Source of the DNA: Kondoa subrosea
Taxonomy: Eukaryota
Length of the DNA: 20,000 bases
Reading direction: 5' to 3'
Assembly (NCBI GenBank): GCA_039545335.1
Contig: BCIN01000009.1
Span: 557,276 to 577,275, forward strand
Position 1 is the stretch's first letter; the number at the start of each line of letters is the position of its first letter. A program made the translations under genes and the position numbers. Under the pieces are notes generated by a model. The model was not told where the DNA came from. It saw only the letters and a list, made by a program, of their open reading frames with translations, and made no database searches. Below are positions 3,483 to 20,000 of this stretch, piece by piece.

Positions 3483-5032
3483 ATGTTTCCTCCAAGCAGC
3501 CCTCGATTAGGCTATCCATCCGCTCATTCCGTCATCGGTCTGGCCAAACAAATCTATTTTGGTTTCACAAATGGGAGATCACTCTTCGGTTGTCTCTTCA
3601 GCGTTGCATGTGTGTCTTGATTTTAGCTACAACACGACATTTTGGCTGATCGCATGTGTGCAAAAGATGGCGCTGCGCCTGTCGCTCTGTGGATCTTCAG
3701 CTTCAAGCATGCAGGAGCAATACCGACTGAATGGAGACCGACTGTACGTTCCGATCTCTCCGTAAGCTGTTCATAAGCTTATAAGGCAGTGGATCGACGT
3801 ACAGATACATACGGAGCTCTTACCTCATATCAACAATATCCTAACTTCCTTTGTTGGCACTTTCTTACTCACACTCATTATTATGCCTTTCGTTTATCAA
3901 CTCCTTACACCTACCAAATCCGTCGAGTCAGTCTCATCGAAACAGAAGCTAGCAGCCTTTTCTTTATTGGCGTATCCTGCTGCATTGAGTATATTGAGTT
4001 GGCTAGCTGAAACGGTGCGTCAATTCTGCAACACCAGCTCGTTTCTTCAGCTTAAATAGTAGAATACGTGCAGTCTATAAGAAGATGGAAAGATCTGTTC
4101 GCTTTCTTATCTTATGGTGTACTCCATTTCGCTTCACCGTTCTTGGGTGGTTTCTTCCTTTGGCTCTGGGCACCATCAGGTACGTGTTGATGGTTACATG
4201 ATATGAAATGTTGCTGATGTTGTATATTCAGGGGTTGCGGCCACTTTTGGTTGGAGTTTAGGCTTTCAGAATTGTGCTAGTTTAGCAACTCATCTCGTCT
4301 TTCCAAGTGAGCCTGAATTTCATTGCTTATCAGCTATATGCTGATGGATTCAAAACAGACGCAGCACGTACGTTGCGACCATCAAAATCGTCCAGATTCA
4401 ATCGGCTTACGTAACTCCTTCGTTTGTCTAGCCTGGTTCGCAGATACCTATGGCAGTCCGCCTATACCCGAACCTAGCTACGAGACGCTCGGAAATCCAG
4501 CTGGTCTGATCCGAGTGGACGAAATTCTCAATGTGAATATCTATCACAAAGCGTTCGTCTGATCATCCGTTCTGCCACATTTCTGGCTAAGAGGGAAGAC
4601 AAATCGAACAGATTCAAGAGATCTCCAGTCGTCTTTGGTGCTATTCCTAGCGTACATGCAGGCACAGCAATCTGTCTTGCGCTCTACATGGGAAGATACT
4701 ATAACGATAGAGCAACAACAGCAATAATGATTTATGCTGCTTGGATGCTTTGGGCTACAATGTATTTACGACATCACTATATGGTCGATTTACTGGCTGG
4801 ATCGATTTATGCTTTGGGTTTCTTTCTTCTATTTCGACGAACGACTTTGAAACGGATTGATGCGCAAGCGATTGAAAAGGGTAGTACTAACGGATGGCAG
4901 AGATTGATTCTAGGGTATGGTTCAAGATTACCTACTGTTCTACCTACCTTGCAAGGTGCAAGTGGGGAAAGTAGTTATGATGTTTTGTCAACGACAGAAA
5001 TAGATGAAGAGATCAGGAAGTTGGAGCATTGA
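3483..5032 (+). CDS. IPT1: Inositolphosphotransferase Ipt1-like protein (Aur1/Ipt1 PAP2-type sphingolipid synthase), multi-exon membrane protein
   Basis: Spliced translation includes AIPTEWRPTIHTELLP, KDLFAFLSYGVLHFASP, SLGFQNCASLATHLVFPNAAPWF, AGLIRVDEIL, SPVVFGAIPSVHAG and RHHYMVDL. The LGxQN...THL and AGLIRVD motifs fit Ipt1 better than Aur1. ATG 3483 is inferred from the phase of intron 3610-3666. Confidence 0.8.
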
Positions 5033-5123
5033 AGAAGTAATCGTTTATGCATATACACACGTTTTAGTTTGCATACCGAAAGTTTTTGTAGTCATTCATT
5101 TTTAATACCCAGAATTGATAATT

Positions 5124-6629
5124 TCAAGGTTTATAAAATACTCTACAAATGCCTTCAAACTTGTAATTCGCATCCTTTTCATCCACTACATAAGCAAAAG
5201 CCAATTTGGTAGGTGAGAAAGCGATGGCTTCAGCTCCACTCTTGACTGGTATAGTATGTATGATCTGACCACTTTCAACTGAGGCCTATCGAGCACATTA
5301 TTACAGCGATCGTGTCTGCTTCAGAAGACGTACGATGTCTATCCTTGGGTCTTCTGTTGCCAAAGCTAGCAGATCACCATCATGCGAAAATCTGACCGCT
5401 CGCACAGGAGAACTGTAGTCAGAGGCAAGCGCCAATCAGAAGACTTCGCTGATTGCCTATGATCAGGACCAACTCTTGTTTCGTATACGTCTTCACGCAA
5501 AACCATTCTTTCGTATCCCATAAACTCGCTAACGAATCATTCGAACCCATAGCCAAAAACCTGTCGACGAGCGCATGCTCCATCACAAGTAAAGAGATGT
5601 TGCAGACGCCTGACTGACCTTCCTCTTGGATCTAGATCCAGTGTGGCGCAAGAAGCAGGATGGGCATCGATTTGAGTAATAATTTCCATACTTGGGAATC
5701 CAAAGAGTTTGAGTCCGACGCCGGAAGCTACTGCTAGATGAGCTGAAGTTTGCGAGAACGTCATTTCGTTGGCCTGAGGATACCCTCGTCAAGCAAAGCG
5801 GGACGAGGGAAAGAGATTGACTAACCTCGTCTGATTCTTTATGCGTCGAATGTATGCTTCCGTCTGCTGCTTGAATAATAGTGAAAACGTTGAACTTGTT
5901 TGCTACCACTAGCCAAACGCCATCAGGTGACCAAGCCATATTTATCGGGTGTTCTGGTATTGTAATTGTATGTATCGATCCTCCCTCTGTGAGCCTCTTC
6001 ACTTTCCTCATCACAATGTGAAGAGAATCCAAAGACTCACGTCTAATGTCCCATATTCGCAATGTTTTGTCTTCCGAAACCGTAGCGAGCTGTGCAAAAC
6101 ATCTTTATCTAATTGCCTGAAGCAATGAGAAGTAGGATGCCACGCACGCGTTCAGGATGTCCAGGATCCCATACTAGACTGATGATTTTATCCGTGTGAC
6201 CTTTGAGCGAACTTCCAGAACTCTTGTCTGAACAATCTGAATCAGCATGATATAGTTGAATAGCTGGAAAAATGGCACACAATCTGCTCCCCAGGGCTTC
6301 CATATCCTTACTGTCATATCATTCGATCCGGTAGCCAAACGAACACCATCGCAAGACCATCCTGTAGTACATTAATCAAACATGCAATGGAATACAGCGT
6401 TAAGGGCCGACCTAGAGCGTGTACTTTGTCTTTCTGTATCACAGCAATCAGGGCCTACCACATTCACAGCGTGCTGCGCGATCAGCTGACATACATGTAC
6501 ACCTCGTAATTCACGAGTCTGCCATTTTGCTAGAGAAGCAGATGTGGAAGCTACGGCTAAAGCACTGGATGTAGAAGCGATAGAGCTACTGCTTGATGCT
6601 ACAGCGGTCGTGATAGCTGTCGTCGACAT
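5124..6629 (-). CDS. THOC3: THO complex subunit 3 (Tex1), WD40 repeat protein, multi-exon
   Basis: TRELRGVHKDKVHALGWSCDGVRLATGSND, LKGHTDKIISLVWDP, SEDKTLRIWDIR, INMAWSPDG, IDAHPASCATLDLDPRGRFLAMGSNDSLASLWD, VRFSHDGDLLALATED. Ends EGICRVFYKP*. Confidence 0.88.
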
Positions 6630-6691
6630 TTTGACTTGGAAAGTGCACAAGATTTGAGAGGACTCTGAATGCGGGCTCTTCGGGCAGCAGA

Positions 6692-6834
6692 CTATCAGTA
6701 CAGAGAATTGGATGATCGGCTTAGAGCTCTTGAATGTATTTGGACAAGCAGCTCAGCTTGGCCAAAAGCGACGAGATGCGATAACACCAGAATGTGCTCA
6801 GCCTGTCTGCTATAGCGCAGACTAAGATTCTACT
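6692..6834 (+). repeat. Degenerate copy A of the TRS120 upstream region plus first ~18 codons (pseudogenic fragment)
   Basis: Aligns to 8511-8683: AGTACAGAGAATT(G/A)GATGA, CTTGGCCAAAAGCGACGA(G/C)ATGCGAT, AATGTGCTCAGCCTGTC(T/C)GCT(A/G)TAGC(G/A)CAGA. The start ATGAACCAA has become ATAACACCAG. Confidence 0.92.
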
Positions 6835-6945
6835 ATCTACTATCAGTGTGCTACGACTATCGTGCTATTATTGAGACGCTTGCTTTCCTCTTACGCGTCG
6901 GGCAGCATTTCTCGTCATACCAAATCAAAACTTGTTCGACAAGCC

Positions 6946-8409
6946 ATGAGCCTTTCTCCGGGTCCTGAAGCACCTATGGCTGTCGGCCGGACTCTACTGG
7001 CTCGCAATGACCTGCTTAATGACCGCTATCGTACAATCTCGTTGCTGGGAGAAGGCAGATGGTCACAAACGTATCTTGTTCAGGACAAGCAGTACGCTTA
7101 CGACCTCGCATGTAGTCAATGTTTAACTCATTTGACTGCTTCGACAGAAGCATGGACAGTTCTGCGGCTCTTGCATGCAAAATCTACTCCGCTTATGCCA
7201 CTCAAGGAGGCGTAAAGAAAGGCTACATTCGCGAATTAGAGGTCCTACAGCGTATCAGAGCAGAAGCAGAAGATTCTTATCTTCCTTCACTTCGAGATCA
7301 CTTCTACCATTCATCTTCGGAAGGTCAACATCTTTGTCTCTTTATGCCGTTGATGTGCGAATCCGTGGAGAATTGGCGGAAGTCCTTACCTAGCAAGTCC
7401 TTGGATGTCCAAACCACGAAGGAAATTGTCGCACTCGTGTTGGAAGGATTGACAGTCTTACACAAACACGGCATCATTCATACTGGTGAGTTGTGAACTG
7501 ATTTAGTACACAACACAAGCTGAGGCTAGTGCAGATATCAAAGCTGACAATATCCTTATCGATGGTGTTCAAGATGAAGACGTCGACAAGAGGTTGTCAG
7601 CAAAAGATACGGTGTCACTCGTCAAAGATCCTTTACCACATCACTACTCCCTTGAGCAATCTTCGAAAGCAAAAGAAACCTATACCTTCGTTTTGACCGA
7701 TTTTTCCAATTGTACGCCCTCGCTCTTCCGAACAGGGCTGGATCTGATCATTAATTGCCAGCCCAATTCGTTGGCGAGCCTTGTCCAGCTGAAATCATTA
7801 GCTCTTACTCTCTCAGAGCACCAGAAGTCACTCTTGGTGTCCCATTTGATCAGAAAGTTGATGTCTGGGCGATCGGCTGCCTGGTCTGTGACCAACTCTG
7901 TTTTGTAGGCCTCGACTGACCAAAGAGGCTCAGGTCTTCGAATTACTGACCGGTGCTTGGCTCTTTTCTCCTACGGACGGAGAGACTTGGACTGTAGGCT
8001 CTACTGTCTTGAGAAGATATGCGTCGCTGATCTCGATGTTATGCAGGTTGAAGATGACCATTTGGCCAAGATGTTGGAAATGACTGGCTCGTCAGCATTC
8101 CCACCTGCGCTTGTAGGTCAAGGGAAGAGAAAAGCGCAATATTTGAAGAATGATGGTAAGCTCTCGATATCCCCTTGATCTTTCCTTTCCCAATCTCACA
8201 ACTTGCCAGGCACACTATTGAAGATCGATGATCTTCTACCTGTGTCGATCGAACGAGCTTTCGCAACATACAAGAAACTTTCGGATAAGGAAGCAACAGA
8301 GGCAGCCGACTTCATTCGAGCTTGTCTCACCCTAGATCCAAGTTCAAGACCATCCACGGAAGAGTTGGCTGTCCATCCATGGATTCGTACAGCGTTTATG
8401 GGCGAATAA
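6946..8409 (+). CDS. Divergent SRPK/Sky1-like CMGC serine/threonine kinase, multi-exon
   Basis: Gly loop LGEGRWSQTY, ALACKI, YIRELEVL, LRDHFYHSSSEGQHLCL, IIHTDIKADNILI, VLTDFSN, SLRAPEV, VDVWAIGCLVFELLTGAWLF, EDDHLAKMLEMTG, FIRACLTLDPSSRPSTEELAVHPW. Confidence 0.87.
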
Positions 8410-8510
8410 GAAAGGCTGCATACTCAAACAATGGAAGGGAATGAAACTCATCGATATACCATTCAACAAGAGAGAAAGAGATTAATGTATACAAGCATTT
8501 GAACAGTAAG

Positions 8511-8683
8511 CTATTAGTAGTACAGAGAATTAGATGACCGATTGGGAGTTCTTGTTTGTGTATGCAAGTGTATGCAAGTATGTCATGAGGTGCAGCCTAG
8601 ATGCATCTTGGCCAAAAGCGACGACATGCGATGAACCAAAATGTGCTCAGCCTGTCCGCTGTAGCACAGATCCAGGTTCTGCT
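8511..8683 (+). repeat. Copy B (intact) of the direct repeat: TRS120 upstream region and first codons
   Basis: Matches 6692-6834. It has ~30 nt more sequence, including tandem GTGTATGCAA x2 (8558-8577), and the intact ATG at 8631. Confidence 0.92.
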
Positions 8684-11600
8684 TGTACCTGTGCAGCCTA
8701 TCAAGCGACAGACTTATGTGGATCATTGCAAGCTCATCAAGCAATTTACTCGGATTCAGCTTCGAGACGTGCCTGTAGACCCTCGTGGCCCTACAGCACA
8801 ATGCTCCGCTCTACCTACCTCGAACGGAATCTTGCTGTTGAATTACCTAGACTCTTATCCTCGTTCTCAAACTTATCTCGAAGAATTCCAATTGTCACGT
8901 CGAGTTTTGGGTGTAATAGGAGTATTGGACTGCGAAGAATGGGATAACCTGCAAGAGGGTATAGAAGAGTTCGATAGATTACTGAAATCACACCCTCAAG
9001 TCCTGTCAACTCGATGCTATGCCTTTCATCCATCTGCAGAACAAAAGGACGATGTGGAAGGCTTGGTGCTTATCCCAAACGTTGGTGACATGAGTTTCTA
9101 TATGTCTACACTCCTGGCCGACTTCTGCGCTTCCCTCTTGCATGGATTGTCGGATCTAGCTTTCGCCTATGATCGGAGACTGGTCGTCGAAGGTCCTTCG
9201 GAAGCTATCATACCCGATGTCCTTTCTTCACTCAATGCAAGATCGTCAAATACCATACAAAGGACTACCACTCCCGATCCAATTCGGCGTAATTCTACAC
9301 CCAACCCTTCTGAATCTTTAGAACATCTGCCGAATAAACGCTTGTCAACTATACCCAATACATCGGATGTCAATCTATTGGACAAATCAAACAGGAGGAA
9401 AATGCAAGGAAGAGTGCTGAAATTGAAAGCCGACTTGAGATCCTTGAGCGGAAGATGGACTGAAGCTACTGCATTGTACAACGAAGCAATTGTTATCAGC
9501 AAGACTACTTCAGACGATGTTTGGCATGGATCGGCTGCGGAGAACTTGATCATGTTACAGGCATTGTCTGTCTGGTTTGGTATGCGTGAGGTGAGCCAGC
9601 CGGTCATTCATGTCATTTGGGCATGGCCTGATCAGCGGCATCACAGACTACTGCTATAGACGGCAGCAAAAGCGATACTCTACCTCTGAACGGCTCTTCG
9701 ACATTGCGTGAATTACCAGATCGATATTCTCAAGTTCTTGCCCTTTATTCTAAATCCCTCACTTCGATCAACACATCAGAAGAAGATCAAACTCCGGCGC
9801 TCATCCATGCAGAAGCCTGCCTTCGAGCAGCACGCGTCACTTTATCAGCTTGGCGAGCTGGCGGCTGGTCTCCTCGAGCTTTGAGCTTTATGATGGCATC
9901 ACCACCTCTTGCACCTGCACCACTACCATCAGACTACGCTCGGCTGAGCGCTTTAGCATCTGTTCAACGCTTCAGCATATCAGAAATTGCTGGCCAAGCT
10001 TTAACAAAACAGTTGGAAACTATTGCATTCGCTGATCGACTCAATATCCTCAAAGCACTCGCTTCCATTTATTCACTTCTAGGCTATACTAGGAAACGCG
10101 CGACTGCACTCAGGGAAATAGCTGCTCTCCTAGCGGATTCAATCAGAAGAGCTAAATTACTCAATACCCAAAGGTATGGCGAAGTAGTAAGAAGTTATAG
10201 CACAACAGAAGGGAATGGATCTATTGTTGGGCTACTAGAAAAGGTGGTCGATGCCTACGGAGTGGAATTGATCGAAAAATTGATCAATGGGAGCAAAGAA
10301 GCCAACCAAAAGCGAAGGCAATCCGTATTTGGCTCATTGGAAGCTCAAAAGAAGCCATCTGTCGTTACTGAAGAAGTAGAGAGCATCTTTGGTTGGCCTG
10401 CTCTGCAAGTCAGTGTGATCAGGGATTCGGTTCTCGTTTCATCAATGATTTCAGGTGTGACTATCAGAAATCGATGTCCAGGCATACGCTGATGTCGTTA
10501 TATGATGCTGCACAGAACATCAAGCTGCTCTTCGATTTGGTGTCTCTGCTTTACGAAGTCTTAGTGCAGTTATGCCGCCTATGGAGCAGTACGAGCTCAG
10601 TCAAACTATCCCTGAGACTTTTGCAGCGGCAGCCAGACGTGGCGCCGAGTTTGAATTGGATTTCTGGGGTCCTCTTAATTTCGTTGTATCGATCGAAGTC
10701 GCACCGTACGTTTCCTATCTCAAACAATTTGTAAGTTGTGATTGATATCATGTCAATCGCAGTCTGTCACCGAATCGCTACCCACATGAAATGACAACTA
10801 CTTCGACTACTTCAAACGGCTCAACAACTCCGGCCAGTACCTTCTACTCCTTCGACCCAAAGAAGGAAAAGAGAATGACAGGAAATACACAAGTAAGTAT
10901 GCCCATTTTATCATGTCTAACGCACTGACATGTCTTACAGAACGTTCTGGTAGAGAATGAGCCTGTTGATTTGCTGGTAACATTGCAGAACACCTTCATG
11001 TTCGACTTACTCGTCGAAAACATCGAATTGAGGTGAGCTTTGCAACAATACCCTGGTACTCTCAAATGACCATCTTCTAAGTACCTCTGGCTGCGACTTC
11101 CAAGCACACCCAATTTCTATCACTCTGCCTAGCGCTTCTTATCATACCATCCATTTGTCCGGTACACCTCTATCAACTGGTACTCTCGATATTAGAGGCT
11201 GCAAAATCCGACTGCAAGGTTCTTCAGAGCGAGAATTTGTCCTACCGATCTGGTCGGCCAAAGTCAATGCCCGACCTGTCAGCCTAGAACTAGACGAGGA
11301 ACGCATCAAGCAAATAGGCGTTGAGTCGCGCAAGCGACAATCAATTGCAGAGATCAGCGATGTTCCTTCAGATTTGCAATTCCTGCAATGCAAAGTTCTG
11401 CCTCAGCAACCTTTGCTCAGCATAAAATCGACGTCACTTACTCATGGTGCTATGATGCTGTATGAGGGCGAAAGGTGCGTCTTACTTGTCATTTGAGATC
11501 GAAGCTCATCCTTACGCGAAGCATAGAGCTCAAATTCAACTTCAGATTGAGAATACTTCCCTTCTTCCAATCACTTTCCTGGATCTTGTCTTTCGCGATG

Positions 11601-13123
11601 CCCATAGTGCAGCAGCTCTGGAACGTCTGCAAGATCACGAAATCAGTCTCTTGCCAGGTGAAGCATACGAGCTTGATCAAGACCTGAGGCTTCAGCCCGT
11701 GTTCAGCTGGGACAGACCGGAAGTCGACATCCGCCTAGAACCAGGTGAACAGATGTTGCTCAACGTCATTTGCTTTGGTAAAGTCGAGTGGTAAGCTTCC
11801 GAGTGATGAAGACCGCTACATAGCCTGACTCTTCCTAGCAATGAAGCGGTCATACAGATCAATTATGGCAACTTTGCAGAGAACAGCAATCTTCAGTATA
11901 CTCGGCGGATGCTCTGTCCTGTTCTCCTGTCTGTCCGTCGATCCCTGTCAGCCCAATCCATGCTCTTTCAACATCTGCGTGAACTACCTGAAGCAGCCGC
12001 CTCGCAAATCATGAAGCGGTCCGCTACTCAGAATCGGCTTCGGGCTCAGAGTGTGTCACACGTCGCTGTACCGCTAGAAGCAACTTTGCGGTCCGTGGCT
12101 TCAGGCAAGCACTGTTTGCTGATTATCGACATGGAAAATATGTCCGGTCAGCCGTTCGAAGTTCATTGCGAAGCGCAACTTGGTGTGGCAGGTATGTAGT
12201 ATCACTTCATCACAAGGGTAAACTGAGACATGCAGCAGGTCTCGAAGCCTTCTCTTTCCACCAGCGTATAGAACCCGGAGCAACGGCTAGGTAAGCTATG
12301 GACTGAAGATTGTACTCAGTGTCTGATTGTCGAAATCCTAGCCTGCTTGTCAGGCTCAGCAGGATACGACTGCCTCCTTCTCAGCTATCGATGAAAGCTA
12401 TCCCGTTGCCTGAAGTAAGAAGACAGCATGTTGTATCTGATAGAAGAATATCACTGGAACAGCAAGCACTAGAACGGGATCTCTTCTGGTGCAGAGAATA
12501 CGTTCTGAATAGTATACAAGTATCTTGGCGTGAGGTATGTAAAACAGTCTGTTCGGCCCTACGCACACCGACCATTATTACAGATTGGAAGCCGTCGCCA
12601 CGGAACAGTCTCTCTTCGTTCACTTCGCTTATCAGAAGATATGCTAGCGACTCTCAAGGCACCAGCCGTCGGTTTGGATATCTTGATTAATTGCACGACA
12701 CCCAACATCGTTCGAACGAAAGGTTTACAAGACCACTGGGAAGTGCAGTCGGACCACTTTGTCGATATCTTTTGCTCTCTTTCAAGCACTCTTGGTATGT
12801 CTCGCATTCGCTATGTTTCTTCTGCTCTTTGACTGCCATCAATAGACCGTTCAATTTTGATGGAGCTGAAGGTCGAGACAGCAGTCACCTCATTTCCTGA
12901 TAGCGAAGAGGACCTACTTCAACCCCTTGCCGATCATCCTGACGTTATTCTGGACGGCAGCGGAATTCTACCAGTATTCGATTTGGCTACAACTTCCTGC
13001 AGCATTTTTTCGATATGCTTTCTGTCATCCGGTCTATACCGCTTGGTAGTTATGGCAACGGAAGCTTCTGCTGCGCAAGGATCTGTCAATGTAAGACGCA
13101 GTGTGTTTGTACATGTTAGCTAG
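8631..13123 (+). CDS. TRS120: TRAPP II complex subunit Trs120 (TRAPPC9), multi-exon
   Basis: AQIQVLLVPVQPIK, YLEEFQLSRRVLGVIGVLDC, GRVLKLKADLRSLSGRWTEA, DDVWHGSAAE, LGYTRKRA, FGWPALQ, NVLVENEPVDLLVTLQNTF and CFLSSGLY. Long Ig-like C-terminal region. Internal exon boundaries were only partly resolved. Confidence 0.92.
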
Positions 13124-13505
13124 AGTATGGACATCGTGGCAATTGCCAAAGAAACCAAGTGAGTCTCCCGCTTCTTCATCGCTCGACGTGAACTCATGGA
13201 CCTCGTAGATGATGAATATGAATGTACAATATGTACTGCCAAGAGGCGCTAGTGCCGTGGCCTTAGGATGGAATCGACCGGTGGTCATAGCTGGTGTGTG
13301 GGATGAGCCTGTACATTTTCCGGATGCTAATGTTCCAATCCTAGTACTTGTCGCAACGTCTGCGATCAACTGCGTATCGAAATGCAGAATTGCAATGCTA
13401 CTACAGCTAATTCGCATGAACCAAAGTCACAAAACTAAAAATCCGACCTCTAGCTTGCACACCCGCTGATTAGCATACCGCACTCATTCTACTATCCTAA
13501 GAACC

Positions 13506-14484
13506 TCAAGGAGTTGCCTTAGTTGCGCAATACATGCCACGAGCAATCATTGTAGCGCAAGTAAAATCAGTTGCGCCTTCGCCAAGATCAGCTGGTCGAA
13601 ACCTCTGTAAGCCAACAACAACTCACCGCTGACTTGTGCCCCAGTGTCGGCACTGTAGGTGCATGCCTTGGTGTTCTGAAGATCGAACTCTTGTTCGCCA
13701 TAAGAGCAGGTAAGGCTTGCAACTCCTTGAAGATTAGTTTCGAGTTGAGCTGCAGCGAAGTAGAATCCGTTCATGCGCTAGATCGACTTGTGAGCTTAGC
13801 AGCGAAAATTGGATCACGAATGCTTACGCGAGGGCAATCTAAGTAGCAGTTGCCGTTATTAAGAGAAGTGGGTGCTTCGTCAACTTGATCTGGGCATCGA
13901 GAGATGGTGCTTGTAGATTCACCACGAGTGACTATACTCGGGGAATTCAGCTTCTGTTTCGGCCAAGGCATAAATAAATCGTACGGAGACCAGTCTCTGA
14001 GCTGTATATGCATTTGGCCTGAAGCATAATCAGCATCGACAGAAATATCACGATCTCGAGAGCCTACAGATCCACCTCTTCCATTACTGTAAGAGCAATC
14101 GTTCTCGTTGGTTCTTCCGACACCTTCAGTCACGTATTTGTAAGCTTCTTGATCAGAAAGATAATAGGGAGATGCGAAAGCAGGGCAGTTCTAGCTCATA
14201 CAAATAAGCTACGAATGATCAATAGAAGTCCGACTGAGCCCACGATGTATTTCGAAGTCGCGATCGAAGGACTGGACGACGCACCACCTTGACGCGCAGT
14301 GAGACCTGCTCTAAGCTGTCAGCACGTCCTACCTGTGCATTTGAAGGGACTACGGACGGCGAGTCGCGTGACGCAATTGACCAGTCTTGACTTGTCTAGC
14401 AGCGATGACTTCACTGATAGGCAGAGCGGTAGCAGCGATAGCCAGATTCACCAGGACGGCGAAAAGGATGCTAATCTTCATCAT
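13506..14484 (-). CDS. Small secreted cysteine-rich protein (~200 aa, 10 Cys) with a two-fold internal repeat; 7 exons
   Basis: Signal peptide MMKISILFAVLVNLAIAATALP and a propeptide with RR and ARQ motifs. Six GT-AG introns join NCPAFASPYYL..CSYSNGRGGSAKCIYSSETGL..RCP..NCYLDCPRRMNGFYF..CSYGEQ..KACTYSADTGA..TCA..YCATKATP*. The ORF track shows it only as fragments. Confidence 0.8.
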
Positions 14485-16338: not shown

Positions 16339-19300
16339 TTACTCGAACAACTCAGTCGGTTCTTTGGTCATGATACCTTGAACAGCACTCGTCTTGTTTC
16401 TCTTGCGACGAGGCGACGAGCGAGCCATAGCTTCAGACGAGCGCTTCTTGGCAGCCGCAGATGGGATTGCCGGAGAGGGACGTCTTTGGCTGCAGCGGCG
16501 CGAACTTGCAGAAGGAGATGCGACCTGTTCGCAAGAAATATAAAAAGCCAGGTGACTGTACGTGCAGACGTACAGAATGAATCGGAGGACCAACAGAAGC
16601 CGTACGTTGAGCACGAGGTGAGCTGTGAGGAGAATTGGGCGAAAGAGGTTGTAAGCGGGAAGTAGCAGTGCGTGCTTGAGCAGCAAGTCCAGCTTGCTCG
16701 CGAGCAATACGACGTTCGCGACTTGCATCTTGTCGCAAAGCAGTCTTCAATTCTTGAGGCGAAAGAGAGTGGCCCTGTTCTTCTTCTCCGATCGCATCGC
16801 TGTCTGTCAATTGAGTTTGATTGCGAGCGTTGCGTTTCTGTCGAAGGGTTAGATGCTTGTGCATGAAATGAGAGCCGTCACTGACTTGCAAATCAGCCAA
16901 AGAGTGCTCTAAAGCCTCGGCGATTTCCTTCTCAGCACCTTGACCAGGGGTGAAGTATCGAGCTCGAGATAGCTTTGCCCTGCCCAGCATCCTTAGCATA
17001 TGTTGTCCATGATCGGATCAGGACCTACTGCTCATACAAACGATTGAAGACCGTTCGAGTCTTTTTGGCGACATTGCGAGATTTTCCACCAGTTGAGGGA
17101 GGTCTGTCCTTACCCATAGATTCTTGACGAACGAAGCCTTCGGTACATAAGCGATTGTATAATTGAGTTGCGACTTGCAGATCGCAATCTAACGACCATA
17201 ATCTTTAGCCATCAACGGAATTTCGACCTACAGTATCTTACCGAGTAGTTGCTTTAGACCAGCAGCTGAAGGCATCTCAACCGCAGCGGCACAAAGAGCA
17301 ATAACTAAGAGACAGTCGTTGGCTTACTTGGTGCTTTCAGAAAGGTAGAGGCTTACCGTGACGGAAGAGAGCCAGAGTACGCAAAGCTTCTAAAGCAGCT
17401 TGAACTCGACCTTCATATTGCACATCGTACGTCGCTTCACTAGAAGAGTATTGACACTTGTAGCAAGAGAAATTTCCTGCATCTGGCTTGAAAGTGCCAT
17501 CTTCGTAGCTGCACACAATTTTATCAGTGGTATGCATCGATCGGTCACAGAGGTAGACTTACCCATAGCAACAAGTATGCACCCAAAGTCCGCAAGAATC
17601 GCAAGCTGCCATCTCACCTTCAAACATGGTATGACCGCAATCGCAAGGATCAGTATTCTCTGGCTGATTATTGCTCTGAGTATCCTCGTCGGTCGTCATA
17701 ACAAGGGATTGAGTAGGATCGACCAGGGTTCGAGAATTCTGAGCTCGCTCAACAGCGGCGCTAACAAGATTTGCTTTTGCTGAAACGAATTTTAAAAGTC
17801 CTGAATCGTTGCCAGCTTCTTGGTCAATGATCATCTTGTCGTTGACTGGCGATTGAACAAGTAAATCGATAGGTGCATCATCTAAATCCATATCATGAGA
17901 TGCGGGTTGAGGTGCTTGAGAAATAGCTAAAGGCGTTTCGGCAGTTTCGTCTTCTTGCTGTGATCCACCAGGTGAATCGATCCTATTACCATTGTGAGTA
18001 GCAAGCGCTTTCATTTGCTGCATCAATGCATGGGTCGCAATAGTGGAATCTTGCGAATCGAATGAATACTGTGTCTCAAATGGGGGCTCATGTTCTACAG
18101 GAGGCTGCTGCTGCTGCTGCTCGTCGAGTTGCATTTGAGCAATTCGCTGATGTGGAGGCGAAGGTGGTGGAGATTCTGGAACGGGCGTCAAAGAGCTTGA
18201 GCGAGATTGTGTCTCTGACAAGTTGGACGAAACAATTTGAGATGCTGATACAATCTGTTTTGGTTGGGATGATTCGATGGACTCAGATAAAGCTTGAGAT
18301 GAGGGCAAAGGCTGAGTGGCAATCAACGAATCAGAGCGAGATTGGCTCGACTGAATATACATCAGCAAGGCTCCATATATAGGGCATGAATGACTCACAA
18401 CAGAGCGCAAAGGATCGTTACTTGAAATACGAGGGGCAAACATGGGAGCTGAATCAATGCGAGGTGGCAGATAAGACAAGCTCTGACAAGGTGAAGCTGG
18501 TTCTTCGAGTAAAGCGGGACGTAGCGGTGGTGATCCAGGTAGAGGCTCAAGCTGTTCTCCATCTCTAGTTCGACGACCCACAGGTTTGGGTTTACGCATA
18601 GACGCAGGTGCGCCTTGAGCTTTAGCTTGACTTTCCGTTTCAGCTTCTGAATCTTGTTCGCCAAGATCTTCAGCATCCCAAACAACAGGCCGCTCAGCAG
18701 CTTCAGCTCTGTTGTACTGCACATCAATCTGTTCTGAAGTCGCAGTGGCCGAAGGCATCGGGATTGGTTGCTCATCGGTCGAAGGCATGTGAAGTACCAC
18801 TGAGGCTACGTTGAGTGATACTGAATGGTAGCCAGTGCTCACGCGGCCCTGATCGCTTGTGAGTCAGCTTGCATTCGGCAGTAAAGAAAGGAAGACCCAC
18901 AATCGGAACACGATCTGGTACTTCGTCAATATCATGAGTGCCAAATTTGTATTTGTTTGACTCATAATCAACATCAGAGAAGTGAGGAGCTGTGTCACTA
19001 GGGTTAGCCATCACTTTAACATGTCTTGTGATAGACATACGCTGATAAACATCGGGCGTTTCCTCCGTGTAATACAGCTTCATAGCAATGTAGCGACGAC
19101 GAGGTAGCTCGCTCATGAGCTGAGTCATAGTAATCAAGCGTTTGACGAGCAATTGCACATCGGTCTTGACTTGATCGCGAGTTTGATGCTTCTTGCGCTT
19201 AGCTTCGTAACCGGTTTCCGTGGCATCGACTTCGATGTCTTTCATCTCGTCTCTTACATTCATCGAAGGTTTGCTGAATGTGCTAGTTGTGCCATCAGGT

Positions 19301-20000
19301 GCAGTCACGGTTTGGTCAGTATAAGAGAAGTTTAGTCTGCACCATTTATCAGCAAGCCAAGCATGATTCGCATGATTCGGAAATATGCTCACGTATAGCA
19401 CTCGATCAAATCGTTGGGACGGTCAGGGTCGACCTATTACCAATGTTTCAGTAGTGAATCGAGGGCAGCAAAGAAAGCAAACATAGATAGCAAGCATCAT
19501 AGTCTTCAAGAAGCTACGATCAAGAGCATCCTTGACACCATCCATGTAGTCAAGCAAGCGATCGCCTTCCTTCGATCCCCCTCGATGAAGTTTCTTAATG
19601 CGAACCGAGTTACCTGAAGCCTTGGGATGTGCCTTCTTGCCAATACTTCGTAGAAGATCAGCAGCAATCTTCGCAGTAGACATAAGATAGCTTACGTCTC
19701 ATCGGTAAAGGCGCTGCAATCACGATTCAGCTCATGCTGCGCAGGCTCGCTTAAGTGACACACTCATCAGGAAAGATGCCTCTGTTTTCGCGTGATCTTC
19801 AGCTCTGAATTGTTCAACTTCAGTCAGCACTCACCTTAGGAAAGAGATACAGCCAATTGCAGCATCCCTAGAGTCGAAATATCAGAAGTAAACAATGGCC
19901 ATTTCGAGCTCAAAATCTACATGAGGAGCTTCACTTCAGTCAACGACTGCTGCTTGGTGATCAAAGCTTGATCAGTAGCTTGAGATTGGACCTGCTTGGG
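16339..20000 (-). CDS. HOP1: Meiotic HORMA-domain protein Hop1 (HORMA + S/TQ-rich linker + PHD + winged helix); start lies beyond the window
   Basis: HORMA motifs QQSLTEVK, AAIGCISFLR, LLDYMDGVKDALDRSFLK and LITMTQLMSELPRRRYIAMKLYYTEETP. PHD CDC..CDSCGLWVHTCCYGY..CYKC. Winged-helix-like LALFRH..QLYNRLCTEGFV. Basic C-terminus. Confidence 0.9.

Follow-up and report, generated by a model that had tools for sequence, protein, structure and literature searches.

The window, the whole 20,000-nucleotide stretch of DNA analysed here, carries an intact SRPK-like kinase gene bracketed by two diverged direct repeats. The right copy of the repeat is the upstream region and start of the neighbouring TRS120 gene, and the left copy ends in a dead stub of the same gene. 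We tentatively favour, at a probability somewhat short of even, a history in which the kinase came in by break repair and a flanking duplication of ~0.2 kb rescued TRS120. The locus is most likely what a single, old rearrangement of a previously described type has left behind, and a weakly supported relic of the THOC3 start codon may add a twist to it. The features of the locus, from left to right, are as follows.

5124–6629, minus strand: THOC3/TEX1-like WD40 gene with several introns (ATG 6629–6627, stop 5126–5124; exon limits partly fixed)
6620–6696, plus strand: probable leftward part of the left copy, comprising THOC3 codons 1–3 and upstream DNA (weak likeness to 8448–8518, equalled in 35 of 1000 shuffles and 46 of 1500 GC-matched stretches)
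6697–6834, plus strand: core of the left copy (ungapped blocks, blastn)
6782–6834, plus strand: dead stub of TRS120 codons 1–18 (ATG to ATA, 1-base insertion)
6835–6945, plus strand: kinase leader, non-duplicated, 111 bases (59% pyrimidine, no ATG, no second copy in the genome)
6946–8409, plus strand: SRPK-like (CMGC) kinase gene with 7 exons and 6 GT-AG introns (model from splice signals)
8410–8447, plus strand: kinase 3′ flank, non-duplicated (38 bases if the relic at 8448–8518 is real)
8448–8518, plus strand: probable decayed THOC3 start and upstream DNA (AT-rich, 31% GC; suggestive only)
8519–8683, plus strand: core of the right copy, comprising the TRS120 upstream region and codons 1–18 (ungapped blocks, blastn)
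8631–13123, plus strand: TRS120/TRAPPC9 gene (start ATG 8631; the last open frame gives an inferred 3′ end)

A kinase gene between two copies of the TRS120 5′ end

The two neighbours were assigned by Pfam, THOC3 through PF25174 (E 3e-12 on one frame) and TRS120 through PF08626 (E 6e-52; matched on two frames). TRS120 is essential in budding yeast, and the methionine at 8631 aligns with the first methionine in 5 of 5 TRS120 homologues. An earlier note on this DNA had placed the left copy ~60 bp from the THOC3 ATG, and this ATG indeed lies on the opposite strand at 6629, 63 bases from 6692. Further to the right, TRS120 has a tail-to-tail neighbour, an intron-bearing minus-strand gene (13140–14480) with a signal-peptide-like start and several cysteines, for two frames of which Pfam gave no match. 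On the minus strand of 17559–19698, a HORMA-domain gene (PF02301), probably the meiotic HOP1, precedes a long low-complexity frame with a cysteine-rich motif at its end. A word-index protein search with the AUR1-like frame as query gave no match.

The repeat cores are identical at 102 of 124 ungapped sites, distributed over three blocks: 6697–6742 against 8519–8564 (11 differences in 46), 6754–6782 against 8604–8632 (2 in 29) and 6786–6834 against 8635–8683 (9 in 49). Blastn recovers the pair in two parts, at E 8e-19 and 2e-6, far ahead of any other self-match in the window. The bracketing of the kinase by diverged direct repeats, as well as the derivation of the right copy from the TRS120 upstream region and start, is thereby confirmed, and the differences are mostly transitions (15, with 7 transversions, over the three blocks together), as had been claimed. 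The right copy reads MNQNVLSLSAVAQIQVLL, the TRS120 start included. The left copy reads HQNVLSLSAIAQTKILL, in which the TRS120 ATG has become ATA with a 1-base insertion, so that the reported loss of this start also holds. Codons 3–17 of the left-copy stub show four synonymous and four changed codons relative to TRS120, which corresponds to a pN of 0.14 and a pS of 0.38 (pS on 12 sites) and is consistent with one free and one constrained copy.

As for its extent, the repeat lies where the earlier note had put it, but the right copy exceeds the left by 28 bases between blocks and the homology runs further left, to at least 6679/8498 and possibly to 6620/8448. Much of the 28-base difference is accounted for by a local 10-base tandem repeat of ~2.5 units at 8558–8587 in the right copy, which is probably slippage later than the duplication. 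Homology to the right of 6834/8683 is unsupported (67 and 150 of 150 shuffles did as well). A search of the organism's own genome (18.9 Mb, 27 contigs) finds two copies of the repeat, both at this locus, which argues against a dispersed multi-copy element, an outcome that would have spoken against the earlier reading. Two patterns within the cores were rejected. A codon-like pattern in block 1, with the same eight residues in both copies, is attributable to chance (equalled in 2041 of 5000 simulations), and the good preservation of the 29 bases that precede the TRS120 ATG does not point to selection, a comparable window having appeared in 6–65% of simulations depending on the assumed rate.

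An assembly artefact, the objection that the earlier note had raised against itself, can practically be dismissed. The window is situated at a contig end, and the two sequencing runs available are possibly the source of the assembly; against this, a single contig in each of the runs (2 of 2) covers 4000–14000 whole with 0 differences and 0 gaps, repeats so diverged do not confuse assemblers, and all three genes are intact. Both runs come from one sample, and the contig check bears on the assembly, not on the population.

The kinase has introns of 49–56 bases and, in the splice-signal model, an intact frame of 383 aa. Pfam PF00069 matches exons 2 and 7, and the catalytic Lys, helix-C Glu, HTD and APE motifs are present, with DFS in place of DFG, as in the relative P0038. 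Exon 2 retrieves 216 proteins at E 0.001 or better. The three best matches, 53–64% identical, are read-through frames on short contigs that break off at the position of intron 2, P0019 at that of intron 1 as well. The window exon and three orthologues form a clade (support 99/95, 46 rows) apart from the canonical SRPK of the genome; the named relatives are Agaricomycete kinases (38–50% identity), and the solved structures nearest to a profile of 14 relatives are SRPK1/2 and Sky1. Judged from its sequence, the gene is an SRPK-like kinase that is old in the lineage. A retrocopy is ruled out by the six introns, two of them at orthologue positions, which upholds the DNA-level event proposed earlier, and a recent foreign origin is rejected in view of the old lineage and the orthologue clade.

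DNA and exon searches of the genome return the locus itself or distant kinases and no close copy elsewhere; the nearest paralogues are 33–45% identical over the matched stretches, and a word-index protein search with exon 2 gave no match. Likeness of the kinase upstream DNA to the read-through leader of P0019 is chance (131–645 of 1000 nulls as high in 8 tests), and an ACGCGT word at 6893 occurs at chance frequency (3 found, 2.7 expected). Two other loci of this genome carry related genes. L060 (G000:C2:1815000-1824999) holds two adjacent SRPK-type kinase genes, the canonical one and, immediately upstream of it, a divergent one, with no DNA-level repeat between them. L061 (G000:C6:304000-313999) holds an SRPK-like paralogue, ~37% identical over the C-lobe, that apparently lacks some of the window-kinase introns and has no flanking repeats.

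Probable leftward extension and possible promoter use

With standard gap costs the homology between the copies reaches left to 6679/8498, and a gap-open setting of 250 takes the alignment to 6620/8448, exactly codon 3 of THOC3. Over six gap settings, the leftward score was equalled by 17–40 of 1000 shuffles, by 28–56 of 1500 GC-matched genomic stretches and by 103–258 of 3000 unmatched ones. The ten bases that hold the THOC3 start codon (6620–6629) match 8448–8457 at 8 of 10 positions, the differences being two transitions, one of which turns ATG into ATA. Among the 98 ten-base words of 6590–6697, only the word ending in this start codon has an 8/10 transitions-only match near the repeat diagonal, and the background of such matches is 103 in 1,438,704 genomic positions. 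Since several words contain the start codon, p was adjusted for them and comes to ~0.02–0.04 for a relic that was seen before it was tested. The distance from the THOC3 start to the TRS120 start is similar in both copies (152 bases left, 173 right). Counted by hand, the left extension contains 40 matches, 24 mismatches and 5 gaps; it is more diverged than the core (40:24 versus 102:22, p 0.004) and fits a neutral difference of 0.30–0.35 per site, near the stub pS of 0.38.

The earlier note had proposed that THOC3 and TRS120 were once a head-to-head pair. The probable THOC3 start in the right copy favours this ancestral arrangement, but at p ~0.03 it is suggestive only. The duplication may have taken in the entire divergent promoter of THOC3 and TRS120, with one ATG retained per copy, and if the relic is real, the duplicated unit extends from THOC3 codon 3 to TRS120 codon 18.

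By its geometry, divergent at 316 bases, the kinase plausibly shares the THOC3 promoter region. Capture of a promoter by the kinase is possible but not needed, since the gene has its own 111-base pyrimidine-rich, ATG-free leader. The left copy contains four ATGs (6712, 6734, 6776 and 6792), which would be part of the kinase mRNA if transcription started at a TRS120-type site; a start site in the unique 6835–6945 part appears at least as likely as one in the left core.

Possible histories of the locus

In the favoured relocation, THOC3 and TRS120 would originally have been divergent genes ~150–170 bases apart. At a break or stalled fork, repair synthesis would have run through the shared promoter to codon 18 of TRS120, switched to the kinase locus, copied ~1.6 kb with the introns, and then switched back ~140–230 bases upstream; alternatively, a circle made up of these segments could have been integrated, with an identical outcome. 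TRS120, cut at codon 18, would have survived because its promoter and start had been re-copied. Afterwards, the TRS120 ATG would have decayed in the left copy and, probably, the THOC3 ATG in the right copy, and the kinase would have disappeared from its donor site. THOC3 and the kinase would now form a divergent pair that probably shares the old promoter region, and the right copy would serve TRS120 and perhaps also the kinase 3′ end.

Several observations favour such a relocation: the repeat is the neighbour's own 5′ end and has only two copies, the leftward extension scores above ~97% of nulls over the six gap settings, the THOC3-start word is uniquely matched near the diagonal, the start-to-start distance is similar in both copies, and the stub divergence fits one free and one constrained copy. 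The introns are kept and common to orthologues, in an SRPK-like family that is expanding in other fungi, and no kinase relic lies beside THOC3 or TRS120. Against it, neither a donor copy nor a relic of one was found by a DNA search of the genome, which returned the locus alone. The left extension is more diverged than the core, and gap costs had to be softened for it to attain the THOC3 start; moreover, without the left core THOC3 and the kinase would still be a plausible 178 bases apart, so that no movement is required.

This last point is accommodated by a local copy-paste, in which the order THOC3/kinase/TRS120 would be ancestral and a 140–165-base piece of the TRS120 5′ end would have been templated 1.8 kb upstream and decayed since. 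It is the simplest event, a single small one that accounts for the core repeat and dispenses with a lost donor; the remaining gap (67 + 111 = 178 bases) is near the 152–173 bases of the relocation, and the kinase lineage is old in the fungal group, as the clade with three orthologues (99/95) indicates. The leftward extension and the THOC3 relic would then have to be chance (p ~0.02–0.04), and the insert would have landed in a stretch that should hold a leader or core promoter, 50–70 bases from the THOC3 ATG. We regard this history as possible, though on the unlikely side.

A tandem duplication with reciprocal loss is less probable still, and we consider it unlikely. The kinase would already have been close by, and a block with the kinase, the promoter and parts of THOC3 and TRS120 would have been doubled head to tail, after which deletions took out one copy of every gene and stopped at the promoters still needed. 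The remnants predicted are exactly a promoter with 5′ stubs of both genes; at the breakpoints the TRS120 stub is clear, and the THOC3 relic stands at p ~0.03. No distant donor is needed, tandem duplications occur in the sampled genome, and it is by such remnants that the process is recognised in mitochondrial genomes, as set out in the relevant parts of PMC5569537. The process demands at least three events, and neither the AUR1–THOC3 gap nor the DNA behind TRS120 holds a remnant of the kinase or its flanks: none of 14 alignments stood out (68–343 of 400 nulls as high), a result that complete deletion would also give, and tblastn over the window detected no second kinase trace. Both the local copy-paste of a TRS120 piece and the tandem duplication with loss were overlooked by the earlier note.

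Very improbable is a mobile cassette with the TRS120 5′ end as its integration site, open to excision between the repeats and hence to presence/absence variation. The geometry of the locus does resemble a gene-restoring integration. No recombinase or transposase family was detected by Pfam among the 21 frames scanned, the block has no terminal inverted repeats and no short target duplication, and it is single copy in the genome, in agreement with the earlier remark that a transposase is not to be seen. Pop-out by recombination between the repeats, which had been suggested at the same time, is unlikely given 18% divergence and a longest perfect tract of 18 bases common to both copies. Furthermore, the contigs show no joint in either of the two runs (contigs drop rare variants), and a crossover within the stub would leave TRS120 with a dead start.

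Flanking duplications at other kinases had also been envisaged, and these did not materialise: at E 1e-3, self-matches were obtained for 0 of 34 other kinase loci (~3.3–3.9 kb each, not necessarily complete with both flanks), and flanking repeats are absent from the two 10-kb loci with the nearest kinase paralogues. A genome sample of 72 loci, each 10 kb long and searched alone, amounts to 720 kb out of 18.9 Mb and includes 3,890 N. Self-matches occur in nine of these loci: judged by hit pattern, three resemble tandem arrays, two inverted pairs and two short tandem copies, one consists of the halves of an AAA protein, and at the ninth the DNA between the repeats is unreadable. No clear second case of a repeat-bracketed gene is present among the 72. 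The inverted duplications, at L068 (1–480/5096–5569) and L106 (1092–1807/4266–5165), measure 0.5–0.7 kb at 90–94% identity and lie a few kb apart; the direct duplications at L067, L090 and L092 span 1–2.5 kb at 67–90% identity and resemble tandem gene arrays.

It is doubtful, to a degree that makes it a poor bet, that this lineage repeatedly relocates genes by repair that re-copies the ends of neighbours, with the present locus as one of several scars, in which a ~150-base bidirectional promoter was split by reciprocal start-codon loss. If this were true, the left copy would serve THOC3 and the kinase, the right copy would serve TRS120 and, through AT-rich decay of the relic, the kinase 3′ end signal, and the locus would represent a dated natural experiment on the partition of a two-way promoter.

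Comparison with known systems

Most changes in gene order are traceless, and the window locus keeps readable junctions in a gene-dense fungal chromosome. Two metagenome scans with TRS120 and kinase alignments and one scan of viral contigs yielded no relative with flanking DNA at the locus. If an empty site exists in a sister genome, a gene would have entered a 150-base space between two housekeeping genes and killed neither, and two diverged copies of one divergent promoter would be on offer for reporter tests. Within the part of the literature that was searched, no fungal case came up in which a divergent promoter had been duplicated and each copy had lost one of its two starts. The main text of PMC2871058 mentions neither THOC3 nor TRS120; fungal gene pairs may be listed in its supplements.

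SRPK-like kinases form an expanding family, found on accessory chromosomes in other fungi (PMC6001611), and their number varies among fungi (PMC6001611, PMC3591445), as far as the relevant passages of these papers go. Like the fungal SRPK-like group described there, the window kinase is a CMGC kinase, nearest to SRPK1/Sky1 among solved structures, that stands apart from the canonical SRPK, in a family of variable copy number. Unlike those kinases, which are from ascomycetes, it has Agaricomycete kinases as its named relatives, and its function is predicted.

A close parallel in outline comes from Arabidopsis, where the sections of PMC2869330 on transposed genes report flanking repeats of more than 30 bases at 18 of 126 transposed genes and 2 of 102 controls, and where, for 13 of the 18, the repeat had its match at the orthologous target site (Woodhouse et al. 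2010, PMC2869330). As in that set, a non-transposon gene in the window has a direct repeat of more than 30 bases on each side, within ~500 bases, and the repeat derives from neighbouring genic DNA, which would be the target if the gene moved, here the 5′ end of TRS120, with two copies in the genome and no dispersed element. The genome yields no donor copy, a feature that the Arabidopsis set treats as optional, and the donor was likewise unidentifiable in many cases there, nine such genes being described (PMC2869330, same sections). The two differ in that movement in Arabidopsis was shown against A. lyrata, whereas the window is known from one genome, and in that the window repeat is a divergent promoter with the start of one neighbour, perhaps with both starts.

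In grasses, the portions of the Oryza brachyantha genome paper on double-strand-break repair (PMC3615480) describe intron-bearing genes copied without transposon signatures, as would be the case here. Breakpoints there are mostly precise and, in the cases analysed, the donor is near-identical, in contrast to the 0.14–0.23-kb duplication in the window, which has no donor. Finally, animal mitochondrial genomes that have undergone tandem duplication and random loss differ from the window, whose genes are nuclear and intron-bearing and in which no remnant of a second kinase copy was found. What the two would have in common, on the cases set out in PMC5569537, is that duplicated remnants of tens to more than 100 bases persist at both breakpoints of an apparent transposition.
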